Shown: positions 828 to 57,976, counted from the first letter of the whole stretch. The stretch: DNA of 63,715 nt, filler included, from Candidatus Desantisbacteria bacterium CG1_02_49_89 (GCA_001871075.1; 5 parts of 5 records of this genome joined end to end with filler, not necessarily neighbours in it); one strand, 5' to 3'. The notes: a model not told the origin generated them from the letters alone. Translations and numbers: made by a program.

Positions 828-1739
828 TTAGCCATAATGCACGACTTCTAAACCTGCGTTGACTGCTATCGTTTCAAGTTCTTTTATGTATTCAACGGGC
901 TGGGGTTTGGTGCAGGAAAGAGGATAGGCGAGGTTAAGCCAGGAATACTTGCCTGCGGACGCGGGGTTGAACGGAAGCAAAGAAACTTTTATTACGCCTG
1001 TTTCCTTTATCCTGCCTGCAGTTTCTCTGACCGTCTGAAGGGAATCATTGTACCCGGGTATCAGGGGTAAACGCACTACAACGTTTGCACCTTTCTTTAT
1101 GAGCCTGGCAAGGTTCCCGAATATCAGGCTGTTGGATACGCCGGTATAAGCGCGGTGCAGCTTGTCATCAGGATGCTTTATGTCGAATAAAAACAGGTCC
1201 GTAACTTCGGCGATCTTCTCAAAAACTTTCCACTGAGCGTAACCGCTGGTTTCCACCGCTGTATGCATGCCTTTTGACCTGCACAGCTTCAAAACTTCAA
1301 CCGTAAAATCCATCTGAAAGGCAGGTTCCCCGCCCGTGATCGTTATGCCCCCGCCGGACCTTCGGAAAAAAGGAGCCAGCTTTTCTGCGTATTCTGCTAT
1401 CTCAAGCGCGGTTGTTTCCTTCCCTTTTACTTCAAGAGCGCCGTTCATGCATGCCCGGAGGCACATTCGGCGGCATTTTTTGCATTTATTCCTTAATTCA
1501 GGGTCGATCCTGCCAAAGGATATTATTTTATCCGGACAGGCTTTTGAACATTCATTGCACTTCTTGCATTTCGCGGAATACCACACAACTTCAGGCTCAG
1601 GAGAAATAGATTCCGGGCTGTGGCACCATGCGCACCTCAGCGGGCAGCCTTTAAGGTAAACGTTCATGCGCAGGCCCGGCCCGTCATGAGAAGCGGTTTC
1701 GTCAACCGCGAAAATAATGCCTTTAACCGGACCTTTCAT
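828..1739 (-). CDS. Glycyl-radical enzyme activating protein (radical SAM with ferredoxin insert)
   Basis: HDGPGLR..YLKGCPLRCAWCHSPE CxxxCxxC motif; extra Cys clusters; GGITITGGEP; overlaps the stop of the GRE gene. Confidence 0.93.
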   Translation of the reverse strand: MKGPVKGIIFAVDETASHDGPGLRMNVYLKGCPLRCAWCHSPESISPEPEVVWYSAKCKKCNECSKACPDKIISFGRIDPELRNKCKKCRRMCLRACMNGALEVKGKETTALEIAEYAEKLAPFFRRSGGGITITGGEPAFQMDFTVEVLKLCRSKGMHTAVETSGYAQWKVFEKIAEVTDLFLFDIKHPDDKLHRAYTGVSNSLIFGNLARLIKKGANVVVRLPLIPGYNDSLQTVRETAGRIKETGVIKVSLLPFNPASAGKYSWLNLAYPLSCTKPQPVEYIKELETIAVNAGLEVVHYG

Positions 1740-5809: not shown

Positions 5810-5970
5810 TTTCAATTTGCAATTTACAATTTACAATTTGACTTTTGCAAAACAGCTTTTTGTTAAATATCTATATTTTCTCTGTTCTCTCAANNNNNNN
5901 NNNNNTAAATATCTATATTTTCTCTGTTCTCTCAATTTGAAATTTACAATTTACAATTTGACTTTTGCAA
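5810..5970. repeat. Heptamer tandem arms upstream of the four-helix-bundle gene, duplicated around a small N gap
   Basis: caatttgcaatttacaatttacaatttgacttttgcaa occurs twice, near-identically. Confidence 0.8.
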
Positions 5971-10119: not shown

Positions 10120-10187
10120 ATTAACCTCTTTGTATGATTACAGTGATTGTAAAATAGATTACAGTGATTATTTAAATATCACCGTAA

Positions 10188-10460
10188 TCATTCATTTATT
10201 AACAAACGGAGCTCCGGGCTGGCGCGGAACGCGGGATATTTTTTCGCCTGCACCTGTATCCTTTCCCCGGTTTTCGGGTTCATCCCCCTGCGCGCCTTTT
10301 TATTCTTTATGTAGAACGTCCCGAAGCCCGAGAGTTTCACGTAATCCCCGCCTCCCATGGCGTTCGCTATCCCGGCAAGGAACGTATCCACCGCGGCTTT
10401 GGCAGCGTTATGCGTGAGCCCCGTCTCCATAACCTTTGCTATTATTTCTTTCCTTGTCAT
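10188..10460 (-). CDS. HU/IHF-family DNA-binding protein
   Basis: VKLSGFGTF..ARRGMNPKTGE..PAF motif. Confidence 0.93.
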   Translation of the reverse strand: MTRKEIIAKVMETGLTHNAAKAAVDTFLAGIANAMGGGDYVKLSGFGTFYIKNKKARRGMNPKTGERIQVQAKKYPAFRASPELRLLINE

Positions 10461-10474
10461 TTTTACTTCCTTGA

Positions 10475-10611
10475 TTACAGTGATTTCTAACTGATGATTA
10501 CGGTGATTATCAGAAGATGATTGCAGTGATTATAAATGAGATTTCGGCGATAAAGACAATTTAAAAAATAATTTACATCGCTGTCATCGTCTTCTTAAAT
10601 CGCTGCCATCA
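10475..10611. repeat. Nonamer GATTACAGT-family inverted tandem arms
   Basis: gattacagtgatt / gattacggtgatt ... atcgctgtcatc; family also at 10135, 16664, 21340, 31208, 48061 and 59101. Confidence 0.75.
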
Positions 10612-12982: not shown

Positions 12983-13082
12983 NNNNNNNNNNNNNNNNNN
13001 NNNNNNNNNNNNNNNNNNNNNNNNNNTTAATTAATTAANNNNNNNNNNNNNNNNNNNNNNNNNNNNNNNNNNNNNNNNNNNN
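12983..13082. other. Assembly gap with artificial TTAATTAATTAA linker
   Basis: 100-nt N run with a central all-frame stop linker. Confidence 0.97.
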
Positions 13083-14959: not shown

Positions 14960-16666
14960 ATGAGTGAAGAAAAAATAGAAACAGTGGCGATGGAGACTTA
15001 CGCGAGGCGGAGCTTCAATTACCTGAATAACATGGTGGACAAGGACGGGCTGCCCTACTTCAATATTTTCTGGGCAGAGCCGTCCGAAGCCGCGCACGAC
15101 TGGCCTGATTTCGGGGACGTGATGTCCAGGCAGCTGCAGGCGGTAGTTATGGCAAGGCACATGACAGGCCAGGCGCTTCCGATGGAAAAGGTCTGGCTTG
15201 AAAAATCCCTTTCGCTTGTTGACCCGGGAACAGGGTTTCTTTACAGGCCGAAGACTAATTTTTCCGAACACGTGGCTGATATGGGAGACGCGGCCCTGAC
15301 GCTTTACGCCTACGTTACCGCTTACGCTGACAGTAAGGACAGCAACCTCAAAAAAATAATATGCAAAATGACGGATTCCCTGCTCAAGAAATACGAAGGC
15401 AACCTTTCCGAAGGAGCCGGGTTCTTAAGCGGTTTCACGATAAAGAGCCTGATGGCATGCGCGCGTTTCCTGGATTATGAACCGGCGCTCAAGCTTGCCG
15501 GAATGCTTGTTGACAAAGTTTTCAATGTTGAACCGCTTTTCAGCCCGGATAACACATTCAGGCACGGCGGGCACATGCACGGGAACCTGCGGACTCTTTC
15601 CGGAGCGGCAGACTGGGCGATTTACACGAAGGACCCTGTGATCTTCAGCCGTGTCGACGCTATTTACCGTTACGTCAGAACAACAGCTACAAGCTTCGGT
15701 TTCCTTCCTGAGGTCATAGGCAGGCAATGCGATATTATCGCGTGCGAGACCTGCGCCGTCATGGATTACCTGAGCACGGTTGTGACGCTTGCGAACCACG
15801 GACATCCCGAATACTGGTCTGACGCGGAAAAGATCGCGAGGAACCACATGATCGAAAACCAGGCAACAGACTGCTCCTGGCTTAAACCGGACAATTCAAA
15901 GGAAGACAGCCCTCAGTTCTCGTGGCGGGACGTGGACAAAAGGATGATCGGCGGTTACGCGGGATGGAGCTCCCCCAACCATATACTCGCGACAAGGGAA
16001 AGCCTGAACGCGCAGTGGGACACCCCCGAGACGCACGACAAGACACGGGCGTTCCAGAACTGCTGCGGCGGCTCAGGCACGCATGCGTTTTTCATTATTT
16101 GGAAGAACGCGTCCAGGTTTGACAACGGAACGCTTTCCGTCAACATGCACATAGACAAGCTCCTGCCCCAGGCAGAGATAAGAGGTTTCCAGCCGTACAA
16201 AGGCCTGCTTACGATATCACTGAAAGAATCCTGCAATGTGAGGGTAAGGATACCGGAATTTGTGAAGCCGAATGAAATGAGGGCGGAATCCGATAAGGGA
16301 AAGATCGAGCCCAGGCAGTGGGGCAATTATCTTGAGCTCGGAAAAAGAAACGCCGGAGAAAATCTGAAAATAACTTATCCCCTGCCGGTCTATACGGAGG
16401 AATTCTTAATAGGAAATCCGGGGTTCAAGCAGTACAAATACCGCGCGGCCTGGAAGGGCGACACCGTCGTGAAAATGGAGCCGCTTGGCAATGACTATAA
16501 AACGGGCTATTCGGATTTTGATAAAAAGGAAGTCCCTGTTTTCTACGGCAAGGAAGGCCCGGGTCCGCTGTACCAGAGAGATCATATGCTCAAGGACGCG
16601 CAGCCCGAACCGAGTGAGCTTTACATGGATACCAGCCCTCTTGATTTCTGGTTTATAAAAGACTGA
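14960..16666 (+). CDS. GH127-like (beta-L-arabinofuranosidase-like) glycoside hydrolase
   Basis: ACETCA and QNCCGG Cys motifs; C-terminal VRVRIPEF beta-sandwich; start moved to the ATG after GGAG. Confidence 0.65.
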   Translation: MSEEKIETVAMETYARRSFNYLNNMVDKDGLPYFNIFWAEPSEAAHDWPDFGDVMSRQLQAVVMARHMTGQALPMEKVWLEKSLSLVDPGTGFLYRPKTNFSEHVADMGDAALTLYAYVTAYADSKDSNLKKIICKMTDSLLKKYEGNLSEGAGFLSGFTIKSLMACARFLDYEPALKLAGMLVDKVFNVEPLFSPDNTFRHGGHMHGNLRTLSGAADWAIYTKDPVIFSRVDAIYRYVRTTATSFGFLPEVIGRQCDIIACETCAVMDYLSTVVTLANHGHPEYWSDAEKIARNHMIENQATDCSWLKPDNSKEDSPQFSWRDVDKRMIGGYAGWSSPNHILATRESLNAQWDTPETHDKTRAFQNCCGGSGTHAFFIIWKNASRFDNGTLSVNMHIDKLLPQAEIRGFQPYKGLLTISLKESCNVRVRIPEFVKPNEMRAESDKGKIEPRQWGNYLELGKRNAGENLKITYPLPVYTEEFLIGNPGFKQYKYRAAWKGDTVVKMEPLGNDYKTGYSDFDKKEVPVFYGKEGPGPLYQRDHMLKDAQPEPSELYMDTSPLDFWFIKD

Positions 16667-16773
16667 TTACGGTGATTATTAATATGATTACGGTGATTAA
16701 AAGCTTTAAGTACGAAAACACATAATTCCACGAAATAGACAGAAGTCGATTAAAATTGAAACACGGAACTTTC

Positions 16774-20760: not shown

Positions 20761-20863
20761 AATTATGAGTTATGAGTTATGAGTTATGAATCAACAGCAA
20801 GGAATTAATTTAAAATAGAATCCTTGTTTTTGACTCATAATTCGTAATTCATAACTCATAATT
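20761..20863. repeat. ATTATGA/TCATAAT heptamer-armed element, copy 2
   Basis: aattatgagttatgagttatgagttatga ... tcataattcgtaattcataactcataatt. Confidence 0.88.
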
Positions 20864-29869: not shown

Positions 29870-31210
29870 ATGAAAGACACACTAAAAGAACTGCTGGGGA
29901 AAGAATGGAAGTGCGGGTGCGGCAGAACGCACCGCGTGCCCACAAAGGAAATTTACTGCGGCGCAAACGCGAAAGAGCGCCTGCTCAGGTTCATATTCGC
30001 CGAAATGCCCGGGCCTGACGTTGCCGTTGTCGCGGATACGAACACCTTCGCGGTCGCGGGCCAGGCTGTGGGAGAATGCCTTGCCGAGAACGGGCTGAAC
30101 GTGAAAGTCCGATTATTCCCGGCAGGCAGAAAGAAACTGAAGGCGGAAAAAGAACTTGCGGAGAAACTCGGTTCTGAACTGAAGGACTTCCATTTCGCGG
30201 TTGCGTGCGGCTCAGGCACTATAAACGACCTTGTAAAATACGCGGCAACGATCGCAAAGATACCGTATATCTCGTATCCCACAGCCCCATCCATGAACGG
30301 GTATCCTTCTCCGATAGCCGCGCTTTCATACAAGGGCACAAAGAAAACGCTTGCCGCTATACCGCCTGCCGCGGTGATCGCGGACCTGGACATCCTGCGC
30401 AACGCGCCGGAGGATATGATACAGGCGGGCATCGGCGACGGGATCTCAAAATCGGTCTGTAACATCGACTGGGCCGTGTCCCGTTTCATAAAAAAAGAGT
30501 ATTTCTGCCCCCTGCCCGGAAAGATGATGGCAGGCGTGATGGGTTTTTACACAGGGAACGCGAAAAAGGCCGCGGGCAGGGACCCTGCGGCGATAAAAGG
30601 ATTGTTTGAAGCGCTTAACCTTGCCGGGGTGTCAATGGTGATCGCGGGTTCGTCCGCCCCGGCTTCAGGCGGGGAGCACCTGATCTCCCACTTCCTTGAC
30701 ATGTCCAATTCTTCGAAGGGAAAAGACATGAACCTCCACGGCCGGCAGGTGGGCGTGACGACAGTATTGAGCGCGAAGCTGTACGAGAAACTGCTTAAAT
30801 TAGACACTGATTTACGCAGATTACCACAGTTAAAGAAGCATTACGCCGGAGACAGGCAGACTAAAAAAGAATTCATGAGCCGCTACGGAAAGAAAATGGC
30901 CGGGGAAGTATACCGGGAATTTATGACAAAGTACCTGCCTCCGGACAAGAAAGAAAAGGAGCTGTTGTTTATCCTGAAGAACTGGGGGAAGATCAAAGAT
31001 ATGATCAGGAAAAACCTGGTCCCAAGCAAAGTGCTTGAAAAAACCCTCAGGCGATCAGGAGCCCCTGTTTCGTTCACAAAACTCGCGATTACAAGAGCGG
31101 TATTCCGCAGCGCGATACTTCACGCAAGGGAAATCCGGGGAAGGTACACGGTCCTGGACCTGGCGTATGACGTCGATATACTTGAAAGTTTTGCAAATGA
31201 TGTCGTGTGA
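29870..31210 (+). CDS. sn-glycerol-1-phosphate dehydrogenase (AraM/EgsA-like)
   Basis: CGCGRTH, GSGTINDLVKY, PTAPSMNGY, PASGGEHLISH, HGRQVG. Confidence 0.9.
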   Translation: MKDTLKELLGKEWKCGCGRTHRVPTKEIYCGANAKERLLRFIFAEMPGPDVAVVADTNTFAVAGQAVGECLAENGLNVKVRLFPAGRKKLKAEKELAEKLGSELKDFHFAVACGSGTINDLVKYAATIAKIPYISYPTAPSMNGYPSPIAALSYKGTKKTLAAIPPAAVIADLDILRNAPEDMIQAGIGDGISKSVCNIDWAVSRFIKKEYFCPLPGKMMAGVMGFYTGNAKKAAGRDPAAIKGLFEALNLAGVSMVIAGSSAPASGGEHLISHFLDMSNSSKGKDMNLHGRQVGVTTVLSAKLYEKLLKLDTDLRRLPQLKKHYAGDRQTKKEFMSRYGKKMAGEVYREFMTKYLPPDKKEKELLFILKNWGKIKDMIRKNLVPSKVLEKTLRRSGAPVSFTKLAITRAVFRSAILHAREIRGRYTVLDLAYDVDILESFANDVV

Positions 31211-31355
31211 TTACAGTGATTCTAACTGAGATTACGGTGATTATTTTAAGAAAGGACCAAAATCAGGATTTGTTAATCTCGGTATATTTCAATAATCACT
31301 GTAATCATTTTCAAGAAATCACTGAAATCATATTTTCGAGTGGAACGAGGAAATA

Positions 31356-32654
31356 ATGCTGGCGTCAAAAGTTTTCGTATTTTTCACCGAGTTGACAAGG
31401 CAGTTCCTGCTGAGCAAAACCGGCAAACCCCTGGGCAGGATCTTTGACCTTATAGTCGACCAGAAGGAAATGTTCCCCCGGGTCATTTCGGTAGTGGTAT
31501 CAACAGGGGTGATCAGGAGATCCTACGCGGTTTTCCCCTGGGAAAAGATACAGACAACGGATGAGTGCTGCCTTATTACTGAAGCGCAGGACCTGGTTTT
31601 TAAGGATTTCTACCAGGCTGAAAACGGTATGTCCCTGCGCAGGGACATCCTTGACAAGCAGATCGTAGACACGCTGAACCGCAAGGTTGTGCGCGTTAAC
31701 GACATTCACCTGCTCAGGGCTGAGAATAACCTGCACATAGCCCACGTTGACATAGGGATGCGCGGCCTGTTAAGGCGCCTTGACCTTGAGCTCGCGGTGG
31801 ACAATATTATACGGTTTTTCAGGCCGGACGCGAAATACCTTGAAAACGATATGTTCATATCCTGGAAATACGTCCAGCCCCTTGCCATCCACCCGATAAA
31901 GGGAATGATAACTTTGAGCGTAAGCCAGGAACAACTCTCGAGCATACCGCCTGCTGAACTGGGAGACATAATACTTGGCCTGGACGTTTACGAGCGCGTC
32001 GCTTTGTTCAGGTCGCTCGACATTAAAATGAAGGTCAAGGCGCTTCTCGGGCTGGAGGCCGGGGTCCAGAAAAGCCTGGTGGAGGACATGGATCCCAAAT
32101 CCATAGCCGATATACTCAACCTGATGCCTCCTGACAACGCGGCTGACCTGCTGGGAGAGTTTTCCGACAGGCAGACAGACAGCCTTTTCAACGTTATGGA
32201 AAGCGACAAGGCGAAAAAACTCGCGGCACTGCTGGGGCACGAGGCGCATTCAGCGGGCGGGCTGATGACAACCGAATTCATAACCCTGCCGGAAAATATC
32301 ACCGTTGAGGAAGCTATAAACCGCATCAAGGGTATGACCGGGAAGGCTGAAACGATATATTACGGTTACATCGTTGATGACGCGCGCCATCTTATCGGGA
32401 TGACCACGTTCCGGCACCTGCTTTTTGCCCAGCCGCAGAAACTCATAAGTGAGATCATGATAAAAAGGCCGGTGCGCGTGCATTTGACTGACACCGCGCG
32501 CAAGGTTGCGTTCCTTTTTGATAAATACGGCCTGCTGGCAATACCGGTTGTGAACGGAGAAGCGGTGATCCACGGCATAATAACCGTTGACGACATACTG
32601 GGTCACATAATCCAGAAGGCGTACAAGAAACGCGCGCGCAAGCCTAAATTATAA
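31356..32654 (+). CDS. PRC-barrel + MgtE-N + CBS domain protein
   Basis: DILDKQIVD..RKVVRVND, MPPDNAADLL, SAGGLMTTEF, GIITVDDI; no MgtE TM domain. Confidence 0.9.
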   Translation: MLASKVFVFFTELTRQFLLSKTGKPLGRIFDLIVDQKEMFPRVISVVVSTGVIRRSYAVFPWEKIQTTDECCLITEAQDLVFKDFYQAENGMSLRRDILDKQIVDTLNRKVVRVNDIHLLRAENNLHIAHVDIGMRGLLRRLDLELAVDNIIRFFRPDAKYLENDMFISWKYVQPLAIHPIKGMITLSVSQEQLSSIPPAELGDIILGLDVYERVALFRSLDIKMKVKALLGLEAGVQKSLVEDMDPKSIADILNLMPPDNAADLLGEFSDRQTDSLFNVMESDKAKKLAALLGHEAHSAGGLMTTEFITLPENITVEEAINRIKGMTGKAETIYYGYIVDDARHLIGMTTFRHLLFAQPQKLISEIMIKRPVRVHLTDTARKVAFLFDKYGLLAIPVVNGEAVIHGIITVDDILGHIIQKAYKKRARKPKL

Positions 32655-32657
32655 TAC

Positions 32658-32760
32658 AATTATGAATTATGAATGATGAATTATGAGTCAGATGCATGGA
32701 ATTATATTTAAATTAATACCTTGTTGTTGATTCATAACTCATAATTCATAACTCATAACT
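32658..32760. repeat. ATTATGA/TCATAAT heptamer-armed element, copy 3
   Basis: Same arms and core as 7181 and 20761. Confidence 0.88.
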
Positions 32761-32771
32761 AAGGATTCTGT

Positions 32772-33998
32772 ATGAAGAATAAGTGGTGGATCGGAATGCT
32801 GGCTTTCCTGGCAGTGCTGGGGCCGGGCATAATCACTTCCAACGTGGATAACGACGCGGGCGGCATAACCACATACTCGCTTGCGGGAGCGAATTTCGGC
32901 TACACCCTTTTGTGGTCGCTGATACCCATAACCCTGGTTCTTATAATAGTTCAGGAGATGTGCGCGAGGATGGGGGTGGTGACCGGGAAGGGGCTTGCAG
33001 ACCTGATACGGGAAAACTACGGCGTGAAGATAACATTCTTAATGATGACCGCGCTTTTCTTCGTGAATCTCGGCAACACGATCTCGGAGTTTGCGGGCAT
33101 CGCGGCAAGTTGCGAGATATTCGGCGTAAGCAAATTCCTGTCCGTGCCGCTTTGCGCTATGGCGGTGTGGCTGCTTGTGGTAAAGGGCACTTATAAATCG
33201 GTTGAGAAGGTTTTCCTTGTGGCGTGTGTGTTCTACATAACCTATATTTTTTCCGGTTTCCTGGCAAAACCGGACTGGGCAGAGGTCATCCCCCAGACTT
33301 TCAAGCCGGCTTTCCAGTTCAGGTCGTTCGCATACCTTACCATGCTCATGGGCCTTGTCGGCACCACGATAGCTCCCTGGATGCAGTTCTATTTGCAGGC
33401 ATCGGTAGTGGAAAAAGGTGTTTCCCTTGAAAATTACAAGTATTCGCGGGCCGACGTGGTCGTCGGGAGCTTTGTGGTGAATTTCGTGGCGTTCTTTATT
33501 ATTGTTGCCTGCGCAGCAACGATATTCAAGGCCGGAATACACGTTGAAACCGCGAAGGACGCGGCGATGGCGCTTGCCCCTCTCGCGGGAAAATACTGTG
33601 CCTCCCTGTTCGCTTTCGGGCTTCTGAACGCCTCGCTTTTCGCGGCATCGATCCTGCCCCTTTCCACAGCTTACTTCATCTGCGAGGCATTCGGGTGGGA
33701 GTCAGGCGTGAATAAAAAATTCCGGGAAGCCCCGCATTTCTATTCCATTTACACCGGCACCATAGTTTTTTCCGCGGGGCTTGTGCTGCTGCCGAAATTC
33801 CCGCTCATAAAGGCGATGTATATTTCTCAGGTCATAAACGGGATACTTCTGCCCTTCGTGCTTATTTTCATGCTGCTGCTCATAAATAAAAGGGAGCTGA
33901 TGGGCGGCTATATCAACTCGCGGTTCTTCAACATTGTTTCCTGGGTAACGGTCCTGGCTCTTCTGGGCCTATCTGTGGGAATGCTGGTTACGCTTTAA
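32772..33998 (+). CDS. NRAMP-family divalent metal transporter (probable Mg2+, NRMT type)
   Basis: GPGIIT..VDNDAGGITTYS, QEMCARMG..TG.GL, GTTIAPWMQF. Confidence 0.92.
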   Translation: MKNKWWIGMLAFLAVLGPGIITSNVDNDAGGITTYSLAGANFGYTLLWSLIPITLVLIIVQEMCARMGVVTGKGLADLIRENYGVKITFLMMTALFFVNLGNTISEFAGIAASCEIFGVSKFLSVPLCAMAVWLLVVKGTYKSVEKVFLVACVFYITYIFSGFLAKPDWAEVIPQTFKPAFQFRSFAYLTMLMGLVGTTIAPWMQFYLQASVVEKGVSLENYKYSRADVVVGSFVVNFVAFFIIVACAATIFKAGIHVETAKDAAMALAPLAGKYCASLFAFGLLNASLFAASILPLSTAYFICEAFGWESGVNKKFREAPHFYSIYTGTIVFSAGLVLLPKFPLIKAMYISQVINGILLPFVLIFMLLLINKRELMGGYINSRFFNIVSWVTVLALLGLSVGMLVTL

Positions 33999-42371: not shown

Positions 42372-42471
42372 NNNNNNNNNNNNNNNNNNNNNNNNNNNNN
42401 NNNNNNNNNNNNNNNTTAATTAATTAANNNNNNNNNNNNNNNNNNNNNNNNNNNNNNNNNNNNNNNNNNNN
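42372..42471. other. Assembly gap with artificial linker
   Basis: N run with TTAATTAATTAA. Confidence 0.97.
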
Positions 42472-43347
42472 AACTACGCGCAGGTCGCCGAAGTAAGCCA
42501 ATGCTCAACCTCCTACACGGACAACGCCATTACAACAGACCTGATATACTACTGGACCGTGATGGCCAAGAATTCCTGGGATATGCTGAGCCTGATAAGC
42601 GAGGAAGTTGACAACAAAGGAAACCTGGTAATAATGTTGCCCGGTGAAACCCAGACTTACGTGATGCTTCCCAGGAATACGGTAATGCTGCTTGATTCGG
42701 CAGATTCAAAAGCAATAGGCATAACAGCGACGCGAACGGGTATCCTGCCGCCGACAGCCGGAGGCCTGGGCGCCATAGTAGGCATATTTGACTTTATACC
42801 CTACAGGATCTCTGACGGGGCACAGGTCGGGTTCAACGCTTCTCCCGAAACGCTTGTTATAGCCCTGCATTACGCGGCGCCGGGCGGACTTCTGGAGAAC
42901 ACAGGTATTTCTCTTGCTGACGCGGCAAAATACATAAGCATCGCTTACTGGAACGGGATACAGTGGACCAGGATCAACGGGACTGTAGACGCGGCAAACC
43001 AGAACATAACCGCCATTGTCACACACCTGAGCAGGTTCGCGATAACTGCAACGGATGTTACCTCGTTCAGGGTGCTGGCGGCTGAACCCAACCCGTTCAC
43101 TCCGCTCAACCCCCCGTATGATAAAGTAACGGTCTCCTTCGCTAATCCTAACAAATACGAGGTTATTTTCAGCATTTACGACCTTACCGGCACCCTGTTC
43201 TTCACGAAAACATATACGGCGGGCGAAATAAAGATCGAGTGGGACGGCAAAGACAGGAACGGGAATGTCGGCGAGGACGGCATTTACATTTACCAGTTGC
43301 AGTGCGGCACGCAGTCCTATACCGGCACGATGATCCTGGCCAAATAA
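42472..43347 (+). CDS. 5'-truncated secreted protein with Fn3-like remnant and C-terminal FlgD-Ig / T9SS-CTD-like sorting domain
   Basis: Frame open to the gap (SYTD..YYWTV); VTHLSRFAI; PNPFTP..IYDLTG..WDGKD..G..GIYIY.L..G.MILAK. Confidence 0.82.
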   Translation, partial: NYAQVAEVSQCSTSYTDNAITTDLIYYWTVMAKNSWDMLSLISEEVDNKGNLVIMLPGETQTYVMLPRNTVMLLDSADSKAIGITATRTGILPPTAGGLGAIVGIFDFIPYRISDGAQVGFNASPETLVIALHYAAPGGLLENTGISLADAAKYISIAYWNGIQWTRINGTVDAANQNITAIVTHLSRFAITATDVTSFRVLAAEPNPFTPLNPPYDKVTVSFANPNKYEVIFSIYDLTGTLFFTKTYTAGEIKIEWDGKDRNGNVGEDGIYIYQLQCGTQSYTGTMILAK

Positions 43348-43408
43348 CGTGTTACGTGTTACGTGTTACGGGAAATACGGGATATAAAGATCAAGAAAAA
43401 GAGGGATA

Positions 43409-44389
43409 ATGTTCAATAAATATCTCAACAAAATATTCGTGGGCATCTTTATTCTTGCGTTACACGTGACACCTTACACGTTACACGTCTGTTATGCGTC
43501 ATATGAGGACATCGGCTGCGGCGCAAGGCCCCTGGGCATCGGGAACGCGTTCTGCGCCATAGCTGACGACGCCAATGCATTCCTGTATAACCCCGCCGGG
43601 CTTCCGCAGCTTAAAAAACTGCAGGTGAGCGCAATGTACGCCAATCTTTATCCGCTATTAAGCGACAGGTCCATAATCAGCAACAATTATCTTGCGGTAG
43701 CATACCCGATGAAACAGGCGGCTATAGGGGTGGCGTGGTTCAGCCTCGGCGCGGTTTCCGACCCGGAAAGATCAAAAGCGCAATACCAGGAAAATACGTA
43801 CCTGCTGACCTACGCAAGGCAGATGGAACGCTTCTACATAGGGTTCTCGGCCAGGTTCCACTCGAAAGAATACGGCGTGAACGACTGGACAGCCGTAAAC
43901 CCCGTGTTCACAAGGAAGAAAACCGCGTTCGGCGTGGGCATTGACGCCGCGATGCTTTACAGGACCGAGGACAACCTGTTCAAGTTCGGCCTGCTGGTCG
44001 CCGACATAAACCAGCCTGACCTCGGCATAGCGTCCCCAAGCCCGGTCCCGATGTCTGCCAGGGCTGGTATCGCCTATGAATTCGAGCCGGTCTGGGTTTT
44101 CAACGACCTGACAGGCGCGGTGGATGTTACCTACCGGGATAATGACGTAAAAGCCCAGGGCGGCATAGAAGGATGGTTCATTGAAAGGACTGTAGCGGTC
44201 AGGATAGGGGGCGGGTTCGGCAGCAATTCCTACGGATTAATATCAATGGGGGCAAGCTACCAGCTTACCGAGGAACAATACAATAATGATTTCAGGATCG
44301 ATTACGCCTTCTCCTGCCCGTTAGGAGGCCTGCAGCCGACAGGCGGGACGCACAGGATATCGCTCACAATGGGATTTGATGTGAAATAA
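43409..44389 (+). CDS. PorV/PorP-SprF-like (UPF0164) outer-membrane beta-barrel
   Basis: Signal peptide; GARPLGIGNAFCAIADDANAFLYNPAGL; C-terminal IDYAF..THRISL..GF. Confidence 0.82.
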   Translation: MFNKYLNKIFVGIFILALHVTPYTLHVCYASYEDIGCGARPLGIGNAFCAIADDANAFLYNPAGLPQLKKLQVSAMYANLYPLLSDRSIISNNYLAVAYPMKQAAIGVAWFSLGAVSDPERSKAQYQENTYLLTYARQMERFYIGFSARFHSKEYGVNDWTAVNPVFTRKKTAFGVGIDAAMLYRTEDNLFKFGLLVADINQPDLGIASPSPVPMSARAGIAYEFEPVWVFNDLTGAVDVTYRDNDVKAQGGIEGWFIERTVAVRIGGGFGSNSYGLISMGASYQLTEEQYNNDFRIDYAFSCPLGGLQPTGGTHRISLTMGFDVK

Positions 44390-44604
44390 CTTGTAGCTCA
44401 TGGCTCATGGCTTTTTGGCTTAAAAAACAAAATTAAGAGCTCAAAATTAAGTTCAGTATTATCAATAAATCTTGAAGCATTAACTTTTACATTTTGCATT
44501 TTAACTTTTGACTTGTATCTATTTCCCGGATCCTTCACTTTTGCATTTTACACTTTGCACTTTGCATTTTGACTTGTATTTTGTAACCAACATAGGAGTA
44601 TTGC

Positions 44605-45774
44605 ATGGCTGAACCTATTCTATCCAAATTTAAACTGCCTCCGACTAAACTTTCAAGGCCTATAATAATAATTATTATATGCGTGGCTGTTGCTGTTTTT
44701 GGCTTTATTTTCATCAGGAACGTGAGCCGGCTCGCGTCAAACAAGATCACGCAGCAGATGAAATACAGCGAAACAAACAAAGGCATCCAGATGCCTGACG
44801 TCCCGGGGTACCAGAAACTGGCGATAGAAAAAGAAATGGAAAGAAGGGTCCAGAATATAATGGACGAGATCGTCGGGCCCCAGAAATCCATCGTCAGGGT
44901 GACAGTTGACCTCACGCCTATGATCCAGGACAAGGAAGAGGTCCACACCCCAAGGCCCATATCTACTACGAAAGAGGAAAAATACACGGTTTCCTCCGAA
45001 AGAGGAACTGAAGACAAAGCCGCGGAGGAACCTGCGGGAACCGCTGCCAAGAAAGAAAACCTGCCGGGAGTCTTTGATGACGTGGAAGACCAGATAAGAG
45101 CAAGGGGCGGGGAGGAATATTTTCTGTATCCGGGTTATCCGTCCGTGGGGGACCTTGAAGCAAAACCCATGGGCCGCGCTCCGATGGGAAGTAACCAGGA
45201 AAAATCAGGAACGAAATCAGTAAGAGAAGCGTCATCCACCGACTATGCCCTGGATAAGAAAATAACGGAAAGGACCACGCCGGCGGGAACAATAGACAGG
45301 ATAAGCGTGCTGGCGCTTGTTGACGTGAACTGGATCAAGACCTTCACCGGAAGGACGATCCAGAGGAAAAGGTCAGAAAAGGAATTAGACCAGATAAAAA
45401 CACTGATAACAGACGCGATCGGGTTCAGCGAGGACAGGGGGGACACGATAATAATGCAGAACGTCGCCTTCCTGGGAGCAAGGCCCAAGGTCGAAATGAT
45501 GGAAAGGATCACGACCGGGATAACCGTCCTGATACTGCTGCCGCTTATTTATTTTATCGTGAAAACAACGCTCACATTCCTGAAGCGCAGGGCTGAAATA
45601 AGGCAGGAAATGATCGAGAAAATGCAACAGGAAGAAGAAGCGGAGAAAGAAAGGAAAATAAAGGAAGAAAAGGAACTGAGGGAAAGGATACAGATGCACC
45701 AGGAGCAGGTGTTCACCATCGGCAGGACGCATCCCGACATTTGCGCGCGTATTATTCGAAACTGGCTTACTTAA
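44605..45774 (+). CDS. fliF: Short FliF-like MS-ring protein (TM1-RBM3/beta-collar-TM2-FliG-binding tail; RBM1/2 absent)
   Basis: EKEMERRVQNIMDEIVG..SIVRVTVDL; TDYALDK..PAGTIDRISVLALVD; ELDQIKTLI.DAIGFSEDRGDTI..NVAF; PDICARIIRNWL. Confidence 0.82.
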   Translation: MAEPILSKFKLPPTKLSRPIIIIIICVAVAVFGFIFIRNVSRLASNKITQQMKYSETNKGIQMPDVPGYQKLAIEKEMERRVQNIMDEIVGPQKSIVRVTVDLTPMIQDKEEVHTPRPISTTKEEKYTVSSERGTEDKAAEEPAGTAAKKENLPGVFDDVEDQIRARGGEEYFLYPGYPSVGDLEAKPMGRAPMGSNQEKSGTKSVREASSTDYALDKKITERTTPAGTIDRISVLALVDVNWIKTFTGRTIQRKRSEKELDQIKTLITDAIGFSEDRGDTIIMQNVAFLGARPKVEMMERITTGITVLILLPLIYFIVKTTLTFLKRRAEIRQEMIEKMQQEEEAEKERKIKEEKELRERIQMHQEQVFTIGRTHPDICARIIRNWLT

Positions 45775-45779
45775 AAAAC

Positions 45780-45877
45780 AATTATGAGTTATGAATGATG
45801 AATTATGAATTAAAGGCATGGAATTTTATCTAAATTTAACTTCCTTGCAGTTGATTCATAACTCATAATTCATAATT
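45780..45877. repeat. ATTATGA/TCATAAT heptamer-armed element, copy 4
   Basis: Same arms and core as other copies. Confidence 0.88.
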
Positions 45878-45910
45878 TTATTTGTATTTAAAAGGAAGGA
45901 GCAAAAGCAA

Positions 45911-46168
45911 ATGACTGGATTTACATTACTTATATTAGTATCTATTGGAGCAATAGCCGGGATCACTTATCTGGTCATAAGAATGAACGCGTCTTCCTCT
46001 GAAAAAAAGGCGGTGCGCGCCGCCGAAAAGAGAAAGACTGACACCGAGGAAAGGGAAAAGCAGGAAAAAATGCGCATTGAAATGCAGATGCACCAGGAAG
46101 AAGCGCTCGCGATGGCGAAGAACAATCCTGAGCTGGTCGCGCGGGTAGTGCGCAACTGGCTTACTTGA
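45911..46168 (+). CDS. Mini-FliF: single TM + coiled coil + FliG-binding tail
   Basis: AGGAG RBS; QMHQE..NPELVARVVRNWLT is paralogous to the FliF tail QMHQE..HPDICARIIRNWLT. Confidence 0.8.
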   Translation: MTGFTLLILVSIGAIAGITYLVIRMNASSSEKKAVRAAEKRKTDTEEREKQEKMRIEMQMHQEEALAMAKNNPELVARVVRNWLT

Positions 46169-46177
46169 AAAATATAT

Positions 46178-46274
46178 TTATGAGTTATGAATGATGAATT
46201 ATGAATTAACCGCAAGGATGTTTATTTAAATAGAAATTCCTTCACTCATAACTCATAATTCATAACTCATAATT
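46178..46274. repeat. ATTATGA/TCATAAT heptamer-armed element, copy 5
   Basis: Left arm near-identical to copy 4. Confidence 0.88.
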
Positions 46275-46291
46275 AAGGAGAGGGAGGAACA

Positions 46292-47296
46292 ATGGCGGAA
46301 GAACAGGAAGTTAAAACTTTGACGGCGGAAACGCTGTCGGGAGGCCAGAAAGCGGCGATACTTCTTATAGCGCTTGGGCCTGAAATATCCACGGAAGTCT
46401 ATAAGCACATGGGCGAGGCGCAGATACGCCAGCTCACAAGGGAAATAGCGGGGCTCAGGCAGGTCACCAAGGATATAAGGGAAGCGGTATTCGAGGAATT
46501 CTACCAGAAAGCCATGGGCCTTGACTACATAAAGGGAAGCTCTGAGGACGCGCTGGACTTCCTCAAACGGACCTTCGGGGACGAGAAAGCCGCCGAGTTC
46601 ATGGAAGAGGTAAAAACAGCCGAGGATGGCGGCCCGGGGCTTTTTGATTTCCTGAAAAACCTCGGAACTGATTTCCTTTACGAAGAACACCCGCAGGTCG
46701 CGGCCCTGGTGTTGTCGCACATGACACCCGAATGGGTCTCCTCAATAGTCTCAGCCGCGCCGCCGGCGTTCCAGGCAGACGTGCCCGAAAGAATGGCGAC
46801 GATGGGCGAGGTAATGCCTGATGTGATAAAGGAAATAAGGGACCTGCTGCGCAAAAAGATGTCTTCCGCGACAAAAAAGGAAGCTACGTCCAAGAACAGG
46901 CTCAGTTTCCTCGCGAAGATGGTGGAAGGCGACGGCGGTGACAGGGTCCTGGAAGGCTTAAGGCAAAAAGACCCGAAGCTTGCGGAAGAAGTAAGGGGGC
47001 TGGTATTCCTTTTTGAGGACGTGGTTACCATTGAAGATGAATCTCTGCAGCTCGCGCTGGGAAAAGTGGGGGTAGAGGACCTTGTTATGGCGCTCAAGGG
47101 CGCGACGAAGGAAATAAAGGACAAGATATTCAAGAACGTCTCCGGAAGGCTGCGTTCCATACTGAACGAAGAGCTCGAATACAAGAAGGAATCCCGCAAG
47201 GCGGATGTGGACAAGGCGCAGCGGAAGCTCGTCAACATACTGCGCGAGCTGGACAAGTCCGGAGATATCATACTTAAAAAAACAGAAACAGTCTGA
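46292..47296 (+). CDS. fliG: Flagellar motor switch/rotor protein FliG
   Basis: LSGGQKAAILLIALG, EHPQ, PKLAEEVR..VFLFEDV, LVMALKGA, NVSGR..ILNEELE torque helix, VDKAQR. Confidence 0.92.
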   Translation: MAEEQEVKTLTAETLSGGQKAAILLIALGPEISTEVYKHMGEAQIRQLTREIAGLRQVTKDIREAVFEEFYQKAMGLDYIKGSSEDALDFLKRTFGDEKAAEFMEEVKTAEDGGPGLFDFLKNLGTDFLYEEHPQVAALVLSHMTPEWVSSIVSAAPPAFQADVPERMATMGEVMPDVIKEIRDLLRKKMSSATKKEATSKNRLSFLAKMVEGDGGDRVLEGLRQKDPKLAEEVRGLVFLFEDVVTIEDESLQLALGKVGVEDLVMALKGATKEIKDKIFKNVSGRLRSILNEELEYKKESRKADVDKAQRKLVNILRELDKSGDIILKKTETV

Positions 47297-47391
47297 TAAT
47301 AGTAACAAGTAACAAGTGTCAAGTATCAAGTTTGAAACTGGCCACTGGAAACTGGCCACTGGAAACTGTAGTTCAAGGAAGGAGTGAAGCC

Positions 47392-47964
47392 ATGGCTGAA
47401 TTGACAAATGAGCAGAAGGGCGTCCTTAAGGATCTTCTTACAAACCTTGGCGGAAGAACAAGCGAGTCTTTCTCGAAGGTCGCTAAAAGAAGGGTAGAGG
47501 TTAAATACACCAAGTGGGAAATAGAGGATTACCAAAAATTCATCGAATACCTCCCGCACTTCACCGCGATAGGGATATTCGGGACCGAACTGTCCAAGGA
47601 CCAGATACTTATTGACGCGCATCCGTCTTTGTCCTACTACCTGCTGGACAAGCTGCTGGGCGGGAAAGGGGAAGCCGGGATTATCGAAGGAAAGAAAATG
47701 ACAGAGATAGAAAGGGTGCTTTTCCAGGATTTTGTTTTCGCGGGACTTACGCAATCCTGGGAAGAAGGCTGGGAAAACATCACGGGGCTGCAGCTCAAAA
47801 TGAGCCTTATAAGGGTTGAGAGCGACCCGTTCCTTACCAGAAGGATGGACGGCAAATTCGTGCACGCCTTTATGGAATGCCAGTTCGAAAAAGGCAAGGA
47901 AGAAATAAACGTCTGCATCCCGCACAAAGTCGCGGAGATGATCGGCGCCGCCCCGCAAGCATAA
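47392..47964 (+). CDS. fliM: FliM middle (CheC-like) domain only
   Basis: YQKFIEYLP, LLDKLLGGKG (GGxG), MTEIER, INVCIP; no N-terminal LSQxEID peptide and no C-terminal SPOA domain; start after GGAG. Confidence 0.78.
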   Translation: MAELTNEQKGVLKDLLTNLGGRTSESFSKVAKRRVEVKYTKWEIEDYQKFIEYLPHFTAIGIFGTELSKDQILIDAHPSLSYYLLDKLLGGKGEAGIIEGKKMTEIERVLFQDFVFAGLTQSWEEGWENITGLQLKMSLIRVESDPFLTRRMDGKFVHAFMECQFEKGKEEINVCIPHKVAEMIGAAPQA

Positions 47965-48121
47965 AATCCGTCGAGCGTCGTAGGTCGTACGTAAATACCG
48001 TCATACGTCGTAGGTCGTACGTTTTAAGATTATGTGTATGACGCATGACGAATGACGAATAATCACTGTAATCATCTTTAAAAAATCACTGTAATCGTCT
48101 TTAAGGAAAAGGGGAGTAAAT

Positions 48122-49252
48122 ATGCGCGTTAAATTGACGAAGTCAATGATACTGGCCATAATGATCATGCTGACCGCCGGCAATGCGGTATACGGGAGCT
48201 TCAACCGCACGACAGGCCTGATAAACATCCCCACGGCCGGAACAACGCTGAAAGAAGGCGATTTTGAAAAAGGCCTTCTGGTGAATTTCTCCTCCGAAAT
48301 ATTCACGATGGATATGAAACTCAACTACGGCATCAACGACAGGTGCGAAATAGGCATATCCATATTTGACGCGTTCGGCTCAGCGGCAACCAAGGCGAAT
48401 TTCCACTGGCAGGTACTCGGCGGAAAAAAGATACAGATGGCCCTGGGTATCCAGAACATACCTCTTGCCGGCGATATCAACCTTGTTCCTAATTCGCTTT
48501 CCCCGTATGCGGTTTTTACCCTTTATGTGATCCCGAGTATGTCGCTCAATGTGGGGATGGGAGGCGGCAGGTTCAGAAGCGAAACCCTTGCTCCGGGGTT
48601 CGGCGGGTTTTTCGCAGGCATAGAGTTCCTTATCAAGTCCACGAAACTCGGATTTGAATACGACGGCAACTGGCTTAACGTCGGAATTAAATACAACCTT
48701 ACGCCAAACATAATACTCGAAGGCGCGGGGATACGCCTAAATGATACCGCGAAAGGCCTTGCTGCGACCGTGGGCGTCAGCATCATAGATTTCCCCAAGA
48801 GGCAGTCCGCGGAAATATCGGAAGGCGTGATCAGCAAAGACGAGATAACAAAAATAATAAACGACCAGATAATGAAAATAATGCCTATAGAGGAAAAACC
48901 TGCGGGTCCGGGCATGGGCGAAACCCCCGGAGGAAGGCTTACCGGGATCAAAGAAGACCAGGCAACTATGGACAACCTTGCGTTCGAGCACGCCCAGGCG
49001 GGCACGCGCTATTACTTCCAGGGTGAATACGCCAAGGCGGTTGACGAGTTCAAAATGGCGATCGCGATGAATGAAAATATTTTCATATTCCACTGCCAGC
49101 TCGGTTCCGTGTATTACAAACTCGGGATGATCGACAGCGCGGTCTCGGAATGGAACAGGGCGCTTGAGATCAACCCCAACGACAAGAATCTCAGCGAATT
49201 CCTGTTAAAAGTGCTTGAGGGCAAAATGGAAGCGGACCTCGCCCCGCGTTAG
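48122..49252 (+). CDS. YjbH-like outer-membrane beta-barrel with C-terminal TPR domain
   Basis: Signal peptide; TTGLINIPTA..L; FFAGIEF, EYDG..LNVG; TPR G..Y..G.Y..A...F..A and LG.VY...G. Confidence 0.7.
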   Translation: MRVKLTKSMILAIMIMLTAGNAVYGSFNRTTGLINIPTAGTTLKEGDFEKGLLVNFSSEIFTMDMKLNYGINDRCEIGISIFDAFGSAATKANFHWQVLGGKKIQMALGIQNIPLAGDINLVPNSLSPYAVFTLYVIPSMSLNVGMGGGRFRSETLAPGFGGFFAGIEFLIKSTKLGFEYDGNWLNVGIKYNLTPNIILEGAGIRLNDTAKGLAATVGVSIIDFPKRQSAEISEGVISKDEITKIINDQIMKIMPIEEKPAGPGMGETPGGRLTGIKEDQATMDNLAFEHAQAGTRYYFQGEYAKAVDEFKMAIAMNENIFIFHCQLGSVYYKLGMIDSAVSEWNRALEINPNDKNLSEFLLKVLEGKMEADLAPR

Positions 49253-49357
49253 CATTCGTAACGTCGTGCGTCGTTCTTCGTGCATCGTCAAAACTGTTGC
49301 GTGTTGCCGTGTTTAGCGTGTTACGTGTTAAATCTTAAAAATTTTGAAAATTTTTTG

Positions 49358-49410
49358 GGAGTAGGGGCTTTAGCCCCGTAATTATATCGTGAGCCTAAAG
49401 GCTCTACTCC
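49358..49410. repeat. GTAG REPIN
   Basis: ggagtaggggctttagcccc ... gagcctaaaggctctactcc. Confidence 0.8.
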
Positions 49411-49477
49411 AAAAGACTCTATTCCAGTTTTAAAATCCGTGAAAATCCGTGGCAATCCGTGGTTAAATAGGAATGAT

Positions 49478-49687
49478 ATGATAAAAGTGACGAAATTCGA
49501 CGGGAATACAATTGTTATAAACGCGGATATGATAGAAACGGTGGAATGCACCCCCGACACCGTTATTTCCCTGACCACAAAAAATAAGATACTGGTCAAG
49601 GAATCAATTGATGAAGTGATTGCAAAGGTCCTCGCGTATAAACAGCAGGTGCACAAGTTCCCGGAACAGAGCGGATCTAATAATTAA
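49478..49687 (+). CDS. flbD: FlbD/SwrD family protein
   Basis: MIKVTKFDG..IVINADMIETVECTPDTVISLT...ILVKESIDEVI..V..YK. Confidence 0.92.
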   Translation: MIKVTKFDGNTIVINADMIETVECTPDTVISLTTKNKILVKESIDEVIAKVLAYKQQVHKFPEQSGSNN

Positions 49688-49754: not shown

Positions 49755-49854
49755 NNNNNNNNNNNNNNNNNNNNNNNNNNNNNNNNNNNNNNNNNNNNTT
49801 AATTAATTAANNNNNNNNNNNNNNNNNNNNNNNNNNNNNNNNNNNNNNNNNNNN
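49755..49854. other. Assembly gap with artificial linker
   Basis: N run with TTAATTAATTAA. Confidence 0.97.
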
Positions 49855-57007: not shown

Positions 57008-57107
57008 NNNNNNNNNNNNNNNNNNNNNNNNNNNNNNNNNNNNNNNNNNNNTTAATTAATTAANNNNNNNNNNNNNNNNNNNNNNNNNNNNNNNNNNNNN
57101 NNNNNNN
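57008..57107. other. Assembly gap with artificial linker
   Basis: N run with TTAATTAATTAA. Confidence 0.97.
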
Positions 57108-57370: not shown

Positions 57371-57976
57371 ATGAAAAAAGTATGTCTGGTGATTATAGGA
57401 ATGCTGCTGCTGGCGGGATGCGCTCCGCGCATGGCTGTCAAAAAGGACTACGACTTCTCAAAGGTCAGGCGCATAGCAGTGCTCGATTTTGAGGGGGAAG
57501 GTTCATCGGGCGTGGTGGACATGTTCATCCTGGACCTGATGAGGTCCGGGTTTGACGTTGTCGAGCGCAGCAGGATCAGCAGCGTGCTAAGGGAGCAGGA
57601 GCTGGGAGGAGCGGGCAGGCTGGACCCTGCGACCGTGAAGAACATAGGAAAGGTCCTGGGCGTTGACGCTCTCCTGGCCGGTTCTGTGAGCCAGTTCGTC
57701 CCGGCGCAGAAAAGGACCATTTATTTCGCGTTGGGCGACACCCCGGTCATAATACCGGGCCTGTACGTGGTGGACAAAGGTGACAACTACATTGTCTACG
57801 CCACGGACGCGGAGATAGGCATAGGCGCCAGGCTCATAGACGTGGAAACAGGCAGCGTTGTGTGGGCCGCGTCTGATTCGTACCGCGGCCTTTCCACTGA
57901 CACCGCTCTGCAGGGAGCGGTTGTGTCCCTTGTGGACGCGCTCAAAAGCGTCTTTCCTAAAGAGAAAAATAATTAA
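57371..57976 (+). CDS. CsgG/HfaB-family lipoprotein
   Basis: Lipobox LAGC; IAVLDF, FDVVERS.I..VL.EQ, IGKVLGVDA...GSV, ARLIDVETG.VVW. Confidence 0.85.
   Translation: MKKVCLVIIGMLLLAGCAPRMAVKKDYDFSKVRRIAVLDFEGEGSSGVVDMFILDLMRSGFDVVERSRISSVLREQELGGAGRLDPATVKNIGKVLGVDALLAGSVSQFVPAQKRTIYFALGDTPVIIPGLYVVDKGDNYIVYATDAEIGIGARLIDVETGSVVWAASDSYRGLSTDTALQGAVVSLVDALKSVFPKEKNN

Follow-up and report, generated by a model that had tools for sequence, protein, structure and literature searches.

The 63,715-nucleotide stretch of DNA analyzed in this study (the window), taken from the metagenome-assembled genome (MAG) of Candidatus Desantisbacteria bacterium CG1_02_49_89 (GCA_001871075.1), carries eight genes of a 12-gene operon in which parts of a flagellar motor are encoded together with envelope proteins. 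The operon encodes, in this order, a giant adhesin with a C-terminal sorting domain (CTD), a PorV/PorP-like outer-membrane barrel, a short FliF with RBM3 as its only ring-building motif, a mini-FliF, FliG, a FliM middle domain, a barrel-TPR protein, FlbD, MotA, MotB, FliL, and an Ig/TPR protein. Judged from the encoded proteins, the torque-making parts of a flagellar motor are kept, namely MotAB with FliL and FlbD, FliG, and the ring-forming and FliG-anchoring parts of FliF, and the operon appears to be without any part serving type III export, the rod, or chemotactic switching. We suggest, at about an even chance, that the operon encodes an export-less, flagellum-derived rotor-stator that acts on the co-encoded envelope proteins. 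The rotor-stator part of this explanation appears well supported, and we infer the coupling of the rotor to the adhesin from operon membership.

The operon and its two loci

The eight co-oriented genes that a preliminary description of this DNA had reported were confirmed by domain and open reading frame (ORF) scans as real genes on the plus strand:

42472..43347, plus strand, 3' end of the large secreted CTD protein, cut by the contig end
43409..44389, plus strand, putative PorV/PorP/SprF-family outer-membrane barrel, 326 aa
44605..45774, plus strand, short FliF, 389 aa
45911..46168, plus strand, mini-FliF, 85 aa
46292..47296, plus strand, FliG with N, M, and C domains
47392..47964, plus strand, FliM middle domain, 190 aa from the ATG shared with the relative L002; the ORF opens with TTG at 47332
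48122..49252, plus strand, signal peptide, outer-membrane barrel, linker, and TPR
49478..49687, plus strand, FlbD, 69 aa when counted from the ATG that L002 also has; the ORF itself begins with GTG at 49439

When JGI metagenome contigs were scanned with the short-FliF family alignment, two loci were obtained in total. The first, L001 (12,999 bp), is the same population assembled independently and is 5.7 kb longer than the contig of the window. The latter corresponds to L001:834-8116; over 7283 nt the two differ at 40 positions, of which 37 fall within the first 93 nt. The second, L002, comprises 21.4 kb out of a contig of 30.8 kb and belongs to a relative with a FliF that is 62-64% identical. 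The prediction that motAB would follow flbD proved correct: in both loci flbD is followed by motA, motB, fliL, and the Ig/TPR gene, and the order of all 12 genes is kept in L002. The intergenic distances across the 12 genes of L002 range from a 1-nt overlap to 50 nt, with the adhesin and the PorV-like barrel at the operon head spaced by 31-40 nt, and these gaps are so tight that they leave no room for further genes such as fliN, fliH/I, fliPQR, or those of the rod. The 12 genes are therefore one operon, and the gene absences given for it refer to L001 and L002.

The comparison of the 12 ortholog pairs between the source organism and L002 showed that all genes are intact and of near-equal lengths, with amino-acid identities of 59-80%. 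MotA (80%) and FliG (79%) are the most conserved whole genes, followed by MotB (71%) and by FliF and FliM (64% each). The proportion of synonymous differences (pS) was 0.80-0.93, which is saturated, and that of nonsynonymous differences (pN) was 0.13-0.28, so every gene is under strong purifying selection, and the decay that the preliminary description had asked to be checked by dN/dS is therefore excluded. It might be argued that the operon is a functionless, decaying remnant of a lost flagellum, a view which is based on the many missing flagellar genes and the two shortened proteins. However, the 12 genes have stayed intact in two lineages, and the shortened form of FliF is shared by all seven members of its family (373-389 aa), with an invariant tail. 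We regard this explanation as very improbable.

Inspection of the runs of N, nine in number, revealed that the window consists of five MAG contigs, unlinked to one another, which have been joined end to end. N-type linkers are the usual means of joining the contigs of a binned genome. Eight of the runs form four artificial linkers of the form N44-TTAATTAATTAA-N44, and the ninth is a separate gap:

12983-13082, artificial linker
42372-42471, artificial linker
49755-49854, no strand, artificial linker; the operon resumes in L001:8137-12115 (motA, motB, fliL, and the Ig/TPR gene)
57008-57107, artificial linker
5894-5905, separate gap of 12 N

The rotor genes (42472-49687) fill exactly one 7.3-kb contig (42472-49754), and what had been taken for a gap at 49755 is the end of this contig. 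The genes found upstream in the window (FAD oxidase, melibiase, fucose isomerase) and downstream (sugar-nucleotide enzymes) lie on other contigs and are not neighbors of the operon. Gene neighborhood across the linkers is thus void, and since the window is a concatenation, the lack of other flagellar genes in it proves nothing about the genome. The weight that the preliminary description had given to the flagellar genes missing from the window is accordingly withdrawn. Its further claim that the export and chemotaxis parts are gone holds within the operon and inside the proteins themselves (RBM1 and RBM2 of FliF, the N-terminal peptide and the FliN-like domain of FliM), but the argument from absence in the window does not.

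An assembly or binning artifact that unites unrelated genes has to be considered, given that the window was concatenated from MAG contigs and that the contig departs from L001 over its first 93 nt. For the operon itself this has already been refuted, and we assign it a practically negligible probability. The same gene order occurs in the independent assembly L001 and in the relative L002. In addition, contigs assembled from public runs, all of them short and breaking at intergenic repeats, span several of the junctions (e.g., L001 1730-4171 and 6360-8117). The genome-specific 13-mer intergenic repeat units AATCAC[CT]GTAATC and TCATAACTCATAA are common to the module contig and to contigs 1 and 2 of the window, and the tetranucleotide correlation of the module contig with contigs 1 and 2 is 0.87-0.90.

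Nearly every operon spacer of the source organism contains hairpins of short tandem units (window 45775-45910, 46169-46291, 47965-48110, and 49340-49420), for which RNA fold z-scores of -5.1, -4.1, and -3.2 were obtained. The spacer 13-mers recur in contigs 1 and 2 (e.g., at 10136-10508, 16665-16698, 20763-20861, and 31209-31306) and give rise to depth spikes in public runs; L002 is without such spacers. Just downstream of the operon, both loci carry a c-di-GMP-I riboswitch (RF01051, 57 and 64 bits; L001:12425-12511 and L002:18179-18266) preceded by a near-consensus promoter-like site. In L002 the riboswitch is followed by a 19-bp terminator-like stem and then by genes for secreted DUF11-type proteins. 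Between the last operon gene and the riboswitch, L001:12129-12278 holds four tandem copies of a 34-37-nt unit, each with a small hairpin (GCAAnCCTTTAGGnTTGC).

Rotor and stator proteins

The short FliF matches only the YscJ_FliF_C family (E value of 9.8e-24). It spans positions 241-551 of the 555 in TIGR00206, with a score of 54.8 bits against a cut-off of 129.75, and its profile aligns to residues 241-555 of Salmonella FliF, which comprise RBM3 with the beta-collar, the second transmembrane helix (TM2), and the FliG-binding tail. Unlike the FliF of a flagellar motor, in which three motifs (RBM1, RBM2, and RBM3) are expected, it lacks RBM1 and RBM2. This is in agreement with the AlphaFold2 (AF2) model calculated from a 36-row alignment (pLDDT 74.7), in which the first transmembrane helix (18-56) leads directly into an alpha/beta domain of the RBM3 type; two long strands and a disordered loop (133-203) interrupt this domain, and TM2 and a tail helix come after it. 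In a Foldseek search of the PDB with this model, the best 18 matches were all FliF MS-ring or S-ring entries (E values of 3e-10 to 2e-6), with SpoIIIAG next. RBM1 and RBM2 are the FliF domains that house the export gate. As reported in the available part of a study of Salmonella FliF (10.1101/2021.09.23.461508), isolated RBM3 makes rings, so an RBM3-only FliF plausibly still builds an S-ring.

Two regions of the short FliF are strictly conserved among the seven members of the family. The C-terminal 14 residues are invariant, and so is an E-x-Y-F-x-x-P-G-Y-P motif inside the collar loop, for which disorder is predicted. Short motifs of such a kind are typical ligands of TPR domains. The mini-FliF, which is an extra component compared with the flagellar motor, consists of one predicted transmembrane helix and a linker of charged residues and ends in a FliG-binding peptide of the FliF type. 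Its last 32 residues share 14 identities with the tail of FliF (E value of 3e-11), it matches positions 503-551 of TIGR00206 (E value of 2.8e-4), and its ortholog in L002 is 59% identical with the same ...RNWLT end.

According to the available text of PMC4768692, the FliF of Chlamydiaceae is likewise shortened (about 330 aa) and linked to FliG, in bacteria thought to be non-flagellated. However, as described there, it keeps RBM2 and one RBM, is without a SpoIIIAG-like RBM3, and is fused to FliG-M, whereas in the operon studied here only RBM3 is kept and FliG is separate, full, and accompanied by MotAB. FlgV is, as far as the consulted portion of its description goes (10.1101/2024.01.09.574855), a small membrane protein between the MS and C rings, and it resembles the mini-FliF in being anchored in the membrane, in the polar character of its cytoplasmic tail, and in a conserved C-terminal peptide of hydrophobic/basic type. 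The same portion gives it two transmembrane helices with an intramembrane Arg and a place between the flhF/flhG and fliA sub-modules. In contrast, and comparing the two by description only, the mini-FliF has one transmembrane helix, lies between fliF and fliG, and bears a tail that is a copy of the FliF tail.

FliG contains all three of its domains (PF14842, PF14841, and PF01706, with E values of 1e-23 to 1e-33), and in the alignment with FliG of T. maritima the EHPQ motif and the R..DxD..R pattern of the torque helix are kept. FliM was matched through its middle domain (PF02154, E value of 6.8e-20). It covers positions 53-222 of the 320 in TIGR01397 (73.7 bits against a cut-off of 219.6) and aligns to residues 47-225 of the 334 in Salmonella FliM, with the GGXG motif of the flagellar protein kept as GGKG. 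However, both the N-terminal peptide that binds CheY-P and the C-terminal FliN-like domain are absent, and no FliN-family match was found among the operon ORFs of L001 and L002, so the full FliM with FliN of a flagellar switch is not what this operon encodes. Other differences from the flagellar motor are that the operon holds no gene for FliE, FliH/I/J, FliPQR, FlhA/B, the rod, the hook, or the filament and that it has the CTD adhesin and the PorV-like barrel at its head, as well as the barrel-TPR and Ig/TPR proteins.

The stator proteins are of flagellar type, though all their NCBIfam equivalog scores lie under the cut-offs. MotA matches MotA_ExbB in the two loci (E values of 1e-28 and 2e-29) as well as MotA_N; it is closest to MotA of Clostridium sporogenes (202 bits), and the RR..E charged interface is kept. 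MotB has the MotB_plug and an OmpA-like domain, and its transmembrane Asp is kept in TYSDL. FliL (E values of 6e-21 and 2e-21 in the two loci) and FlbD (PF06289, E value of 1.5e-25; 68% identical to the L002 ortholog) complete the set that is shared with flagellar motors. A Zorya (ZorAB) system was considered and rejected: MotA matches nothing in PADLOC, and MotB reaches at most 69 bits with ZorB compared with 161 bits with the flagellar MotS.

The envelope proteins and their possible coupling to the rotor

The CTD protein encoded at the 3' end visible in the window gave FlgD_ig, CHU_C, and Por_Secre_tail matches with E values of 1e-4 to 1e-3. The CTD of the L001 protein passes marginally as type IX secretion system (T9SS) cargo, with 23.5 bits against the TIGR04183 cut-off of 23, and all Pfam CTD families stay under their 27-bit cut-offs. 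Its last 300 aa are 62% identical to those of the L002 ortholog, which is an Ig-rich protein of at least 2893 aa with Big_5, Big_1, Invasin_D3, fn3, and CBM_4_9 domains and the CTD. The barrel that follows scores 25.2 bits with PF11751 (cut-off 22.3), 83.2 bits with NF033709 (PorV_fam; under the cut-off of 90), and far under the cut-offs of the PorV and PorQ equivalogs. Its identity is 66% to the ortholog in L002 and 27% to a PorV-family protein of G001, the 1.7-Mb MAG of Ca. Desantisbacteria CG1_02_38_46.

After a signal peptide, the barrel-TPR protein has a barrel at about residues 26-235, which a flexible linker connects to a TPR domain at the C terminus. The protein had been labeled YjbH-like; the barrel and the TPR are indeed present, but the label itself is backed by just one structural neighbor in the Atlas (TM 0.51/0.65), where the neighbors carry YjbH- and YaiO-like barrels, and the barrel part searched alone against Pfam matched no family. 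The identity to L002 is 86% in the TPR domain, 56% in the barrel, and 40% in the linker. The TPR domain is thus as conserved as FliG and MotA, which suggests that it has a fixed protein partner. The Ig/TPR protein (481 aa) combines three Ig-like domains with a signal sequence, a long linker rich in K/E/P, and a short helical end that is TPR-like. Its AF2 model was poor (pLDDT 60.5), Foldseek gave generic invasin/intimin-like Ig rods only, and the look-up in the Atlas gave no usable match.

In several respects the operon resembles the T9SS gliding machinery of Bacteroidota (GldLM/PorLM, SprB-SprF). The genes of an ion-driven motor accompany that of a very large Ig-rich CTD surface protein, TPR-bearing envelope partners are present, as with PorE, and a PorP/PorV-like barrel follows the adhesin, mirroring SprF holding SprB. 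As stated in the available part of PMC9143113, type B CTD proteins, including SprB with SprF, bind PorP-like barrels encoded adjacently. Unlike in Bacteroidota, the operon has a flagellar-type 5:2 stator and a FliG/FliF rotor instead of GldLM, the CTD barely reaches TIGR04183, and the barrel is under the PorV_fam cut-off. No PorL/M (GldL/M), PorK/N (the GldK/N of gliding), or SprA/Sov was found in L001 or L002.

Based on these components, we propose the following mechanism. Ion flow through peptidoglycan-anchored MotAB, with FliL and FlbD, would turn a ring of FliG and the FliM middle domain, which would be carried in the inner membrane on an S-ring of RBM3-only FliF. The mini-FliF, being TM2 plus the tail of a FliF, may supply extra or regulatory anchors for FliG. 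Without a rod, the rotating periplasmic ring would act on the co-encoded envelope proteins, a step which is suggested because the same tight operon occurs in both lineages, the TPR domain is 86% conserved, and the FliF loop motif is invariant. The most plausible coupling would be through the TPR domain on its flexible linker from the outer-membrane barrel, through the Ig-rod/TPR protein, or through both. As output, the giant adhesin might be moved, deployed, or secreted while it is held by the PorP/PorV-like barrel, analogous to SprB-SprF driven by the T9SS gliding motor.

It is also conceivable that the proteins have a non-rotary role, in which FliF, FliG, and MotAB form an ion-driven energizer or an envelope scaffold for the barrels (cf. 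TolQR-Pal and ExbBD-TonB), or a surface or load sensor that feeds adhesion. The OmpA-like domain of MotB, FliL, and the two outer-membrane/periplasmic TPR proteins in one operon would fit such a role, and the riboswitch that controls the next genes (for DUF11-type secreted proteins) at both loci points to a surface-attached lifestyle. However, the charges of the FliG torque helix and the MotA interface are conserved, and these residues matter only for torque transfer between stator and rotor; moreover, FliG and MotA are the best conserved of the whole genes. We therefore consider a non-rotary role to be quite improbable.

Host lineage, distribution, and significance

The host is probably an uncultured groundwater bacterium of the candidate phylum Desantisbacteria, as indicated by sequence comparison. 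PurB is encoded on contig 1, which has the 13-mer repeats in common with the module contig. One protein is 80% identical to it, and seven further proteins reach 72-74%, among them that of Ca. Desantisbacteria CG1_02_38_46 (72%), after which the identities drop to 61% or less. The DNA of the module occurs in 24 listed groundwater or aquifer runs, among which there is no RNA dataset. The short FliF forms a distinct and rare family. A word-indexed protein search gave 13 matches among 3996 candidates, of which seven were short FliFs (373-389 aa, 49-100% identical) and six were canonical FliFs of 520-603 aa with E values of 9e-9 or worse. HMMER retrieved 2826 matches at E<=1e-3 from 1.84 billion representatives, but only one at E<=1e-30, namely the cluster of the short-FliF family itself, and all others lay at 5.5e-24 or weaker, headed by a canonical 515-aa FliF; the short FliF is thus a single 50%-identity cluster among these representatives. 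Six of the matches were inspected as possible further short FliFs: three of 340-373 aa turned out to be N-truncated canonical FliFs and were rejected, and the other three (493-539 aa) were of canonical type. The scan of GTDB species genomes for the invariant motifs of the short FliF gave 75 pattern matches, none of which was confirmed. For FliG, two orthologs are 79% and 78% identical, the latter being encoded on a 10-kb contig that also carries one of the other five short FliFs, and the 117 others among the 120 matches listed are 36-41% identical; the named FliGs among the matches listed belong to Bacillota (Methylomusa, Lucifera, Lachnospiraceae, and Heliobacteriaceae).

G001, whose completeness is not given, was the sole relative genome compared. 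The assembly has no match to the short-FliF profile, FliG_C, or FlhA. Its single MotA_ExbB match lies in a cluster which looks, by ORF sizes alone, like ExbB-ExbD-TonB. No GldM or GldL match was found in it (the GldL search was run without a positive control), and its SprA_N match of 26.3 bits is just under the cut-off of 27.

The main rival explanation is that the operon is the motor/switch sub-operon of a real but unusual flagellum, with the export gate, the ATPase, the rod, the hook, the filament, FliN, and perhaps a separate RBM1/2 (SctJ-like) protein encoded elsewhere. In that case the barrel-TPR and Ig/TPR proteins would be accessories of the motor in the periplasm or outer membrane, specific to the lineage and comparable to collar or disk proteins. 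The order flbD-motA-motB-fliL is usual in flagellar operons of the Bacillota and Spirochaete types, a weak match links the TPR part to FlcA, a collar protein of spirochetes (E value of 9.7e-5), and the FliG score and the FlgV homologs described below point in this direction as well. Against this, to our knowledge, there is no flagellum with a FliF that lacks RBM1/RBM2 or a FliM that lacks the FliN-like domain. An adhesin and a PorV-like barrel stand at the head of the operon, the nearest named relative (G001) is without matches to FliF, FliG, and FlhA, and a sigma-28-type promoter pattern, admittedly a weak test, has no match in L001 or L002. The literature searched gave no precedent either, the only short FliF found being that of Chlamydiaceae, a non-flagellated group according to the available text of PMC4768692. 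Taken together, we find an unusual flagellum unlikely.

Several observations weigh against the proposed export-less rotor-stator and its link to the adhesin. FliG scores 261.8 bits with TIGR00207, which is over the flagellar equivalog cut-off of 226.7, and FlbD, FliL, and MotAB resemble ordinary flagellar proteins. FlgV homologs have been reported in Desantisbacteria, and all members of the FlgV family were placed in flagellar superoperons in the available part of that report (10.1101/2024.01.09.574855), so flagella appear to exist in part of the phylum. The gene context is known for two loci, the other five short-FliF proteins being known as proteins only. G001 contains seven PorV-family matches and four CTD matches, and in one of its loci (L058, G001:C105:6741-10577) the gene order is an FG-GAP-repeat CTD protein, immediately after it a PorV-family barrel, and next an MFS transporter. 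Cassettes of cargo plus barrel thus seem to be a habit of the Desantisbacteria lineage, and since they are common in G001, the adjacency of the adhesin to the rotor could be incidental. The link to T9SS-like secretion or surface motility drawn in the preliminary description came from this adjacency and is tentative.

Three other features of the window are worth recording. At 828-3910 there is a glycyl-radical enzyme (PFL-like, E value of 1e-118) with its radical-SAM activase on the minus strand, which suggests an anaerobic lifestyle. At 31356-33998, a 432-aa protein with MgtE_N and CBS domains, in which no MgtE membrane domain was matched at E<=1e-5, is encoded directly upstream of an Nramp transporter and could be its soluble, Mg/metal-sensing regulator. 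The last contig carries the gene of a CsgG-family lipoprotein (57371-57976, E value of 7e-18).

We know of no FliG/MotAB motor that does not turn a flagellum. No description of this gene set was found in the literature searched, supplements being outside its scope. In the available part of a stator survey (PMC12505986), flagellar-type stators are all found in flagella, and non-flagellar roles are given only for the ExbBD/TolQR/AglRS-like group. It is possible, though doubtful, that the operon represents a hitherto unknown class of envelope-spanning rotary machine, in which an MS/C-ring with MotAB, deprived of the type III export apparatus, rod, hook, and filament, drives a T9SS-style adhesin for gliding, surface motility, or adhesin deployment. 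Should this hold, FliG and a flagellar-type stator would here be put to a non-flagellar use for the first time, and the operon would be a natural demonstration that the rotor can exist and work without the export machine. The rotor-stator core would be revealed as a separable module by such an operon under selection, in which the torque parts alone are retained and tied to an adhesin and outer-membrane proteins, and this bears directly on the evolutionary assembly of the flagellum. As a minimal natural rotor, the set of RBM3-only FliF, FliG, and the FliM middle domain would be of use in structural and synthetic work, and the operon would be a third solution, beside GldLM and AglRQS, for powering surface adhesins across the diderm envelope.

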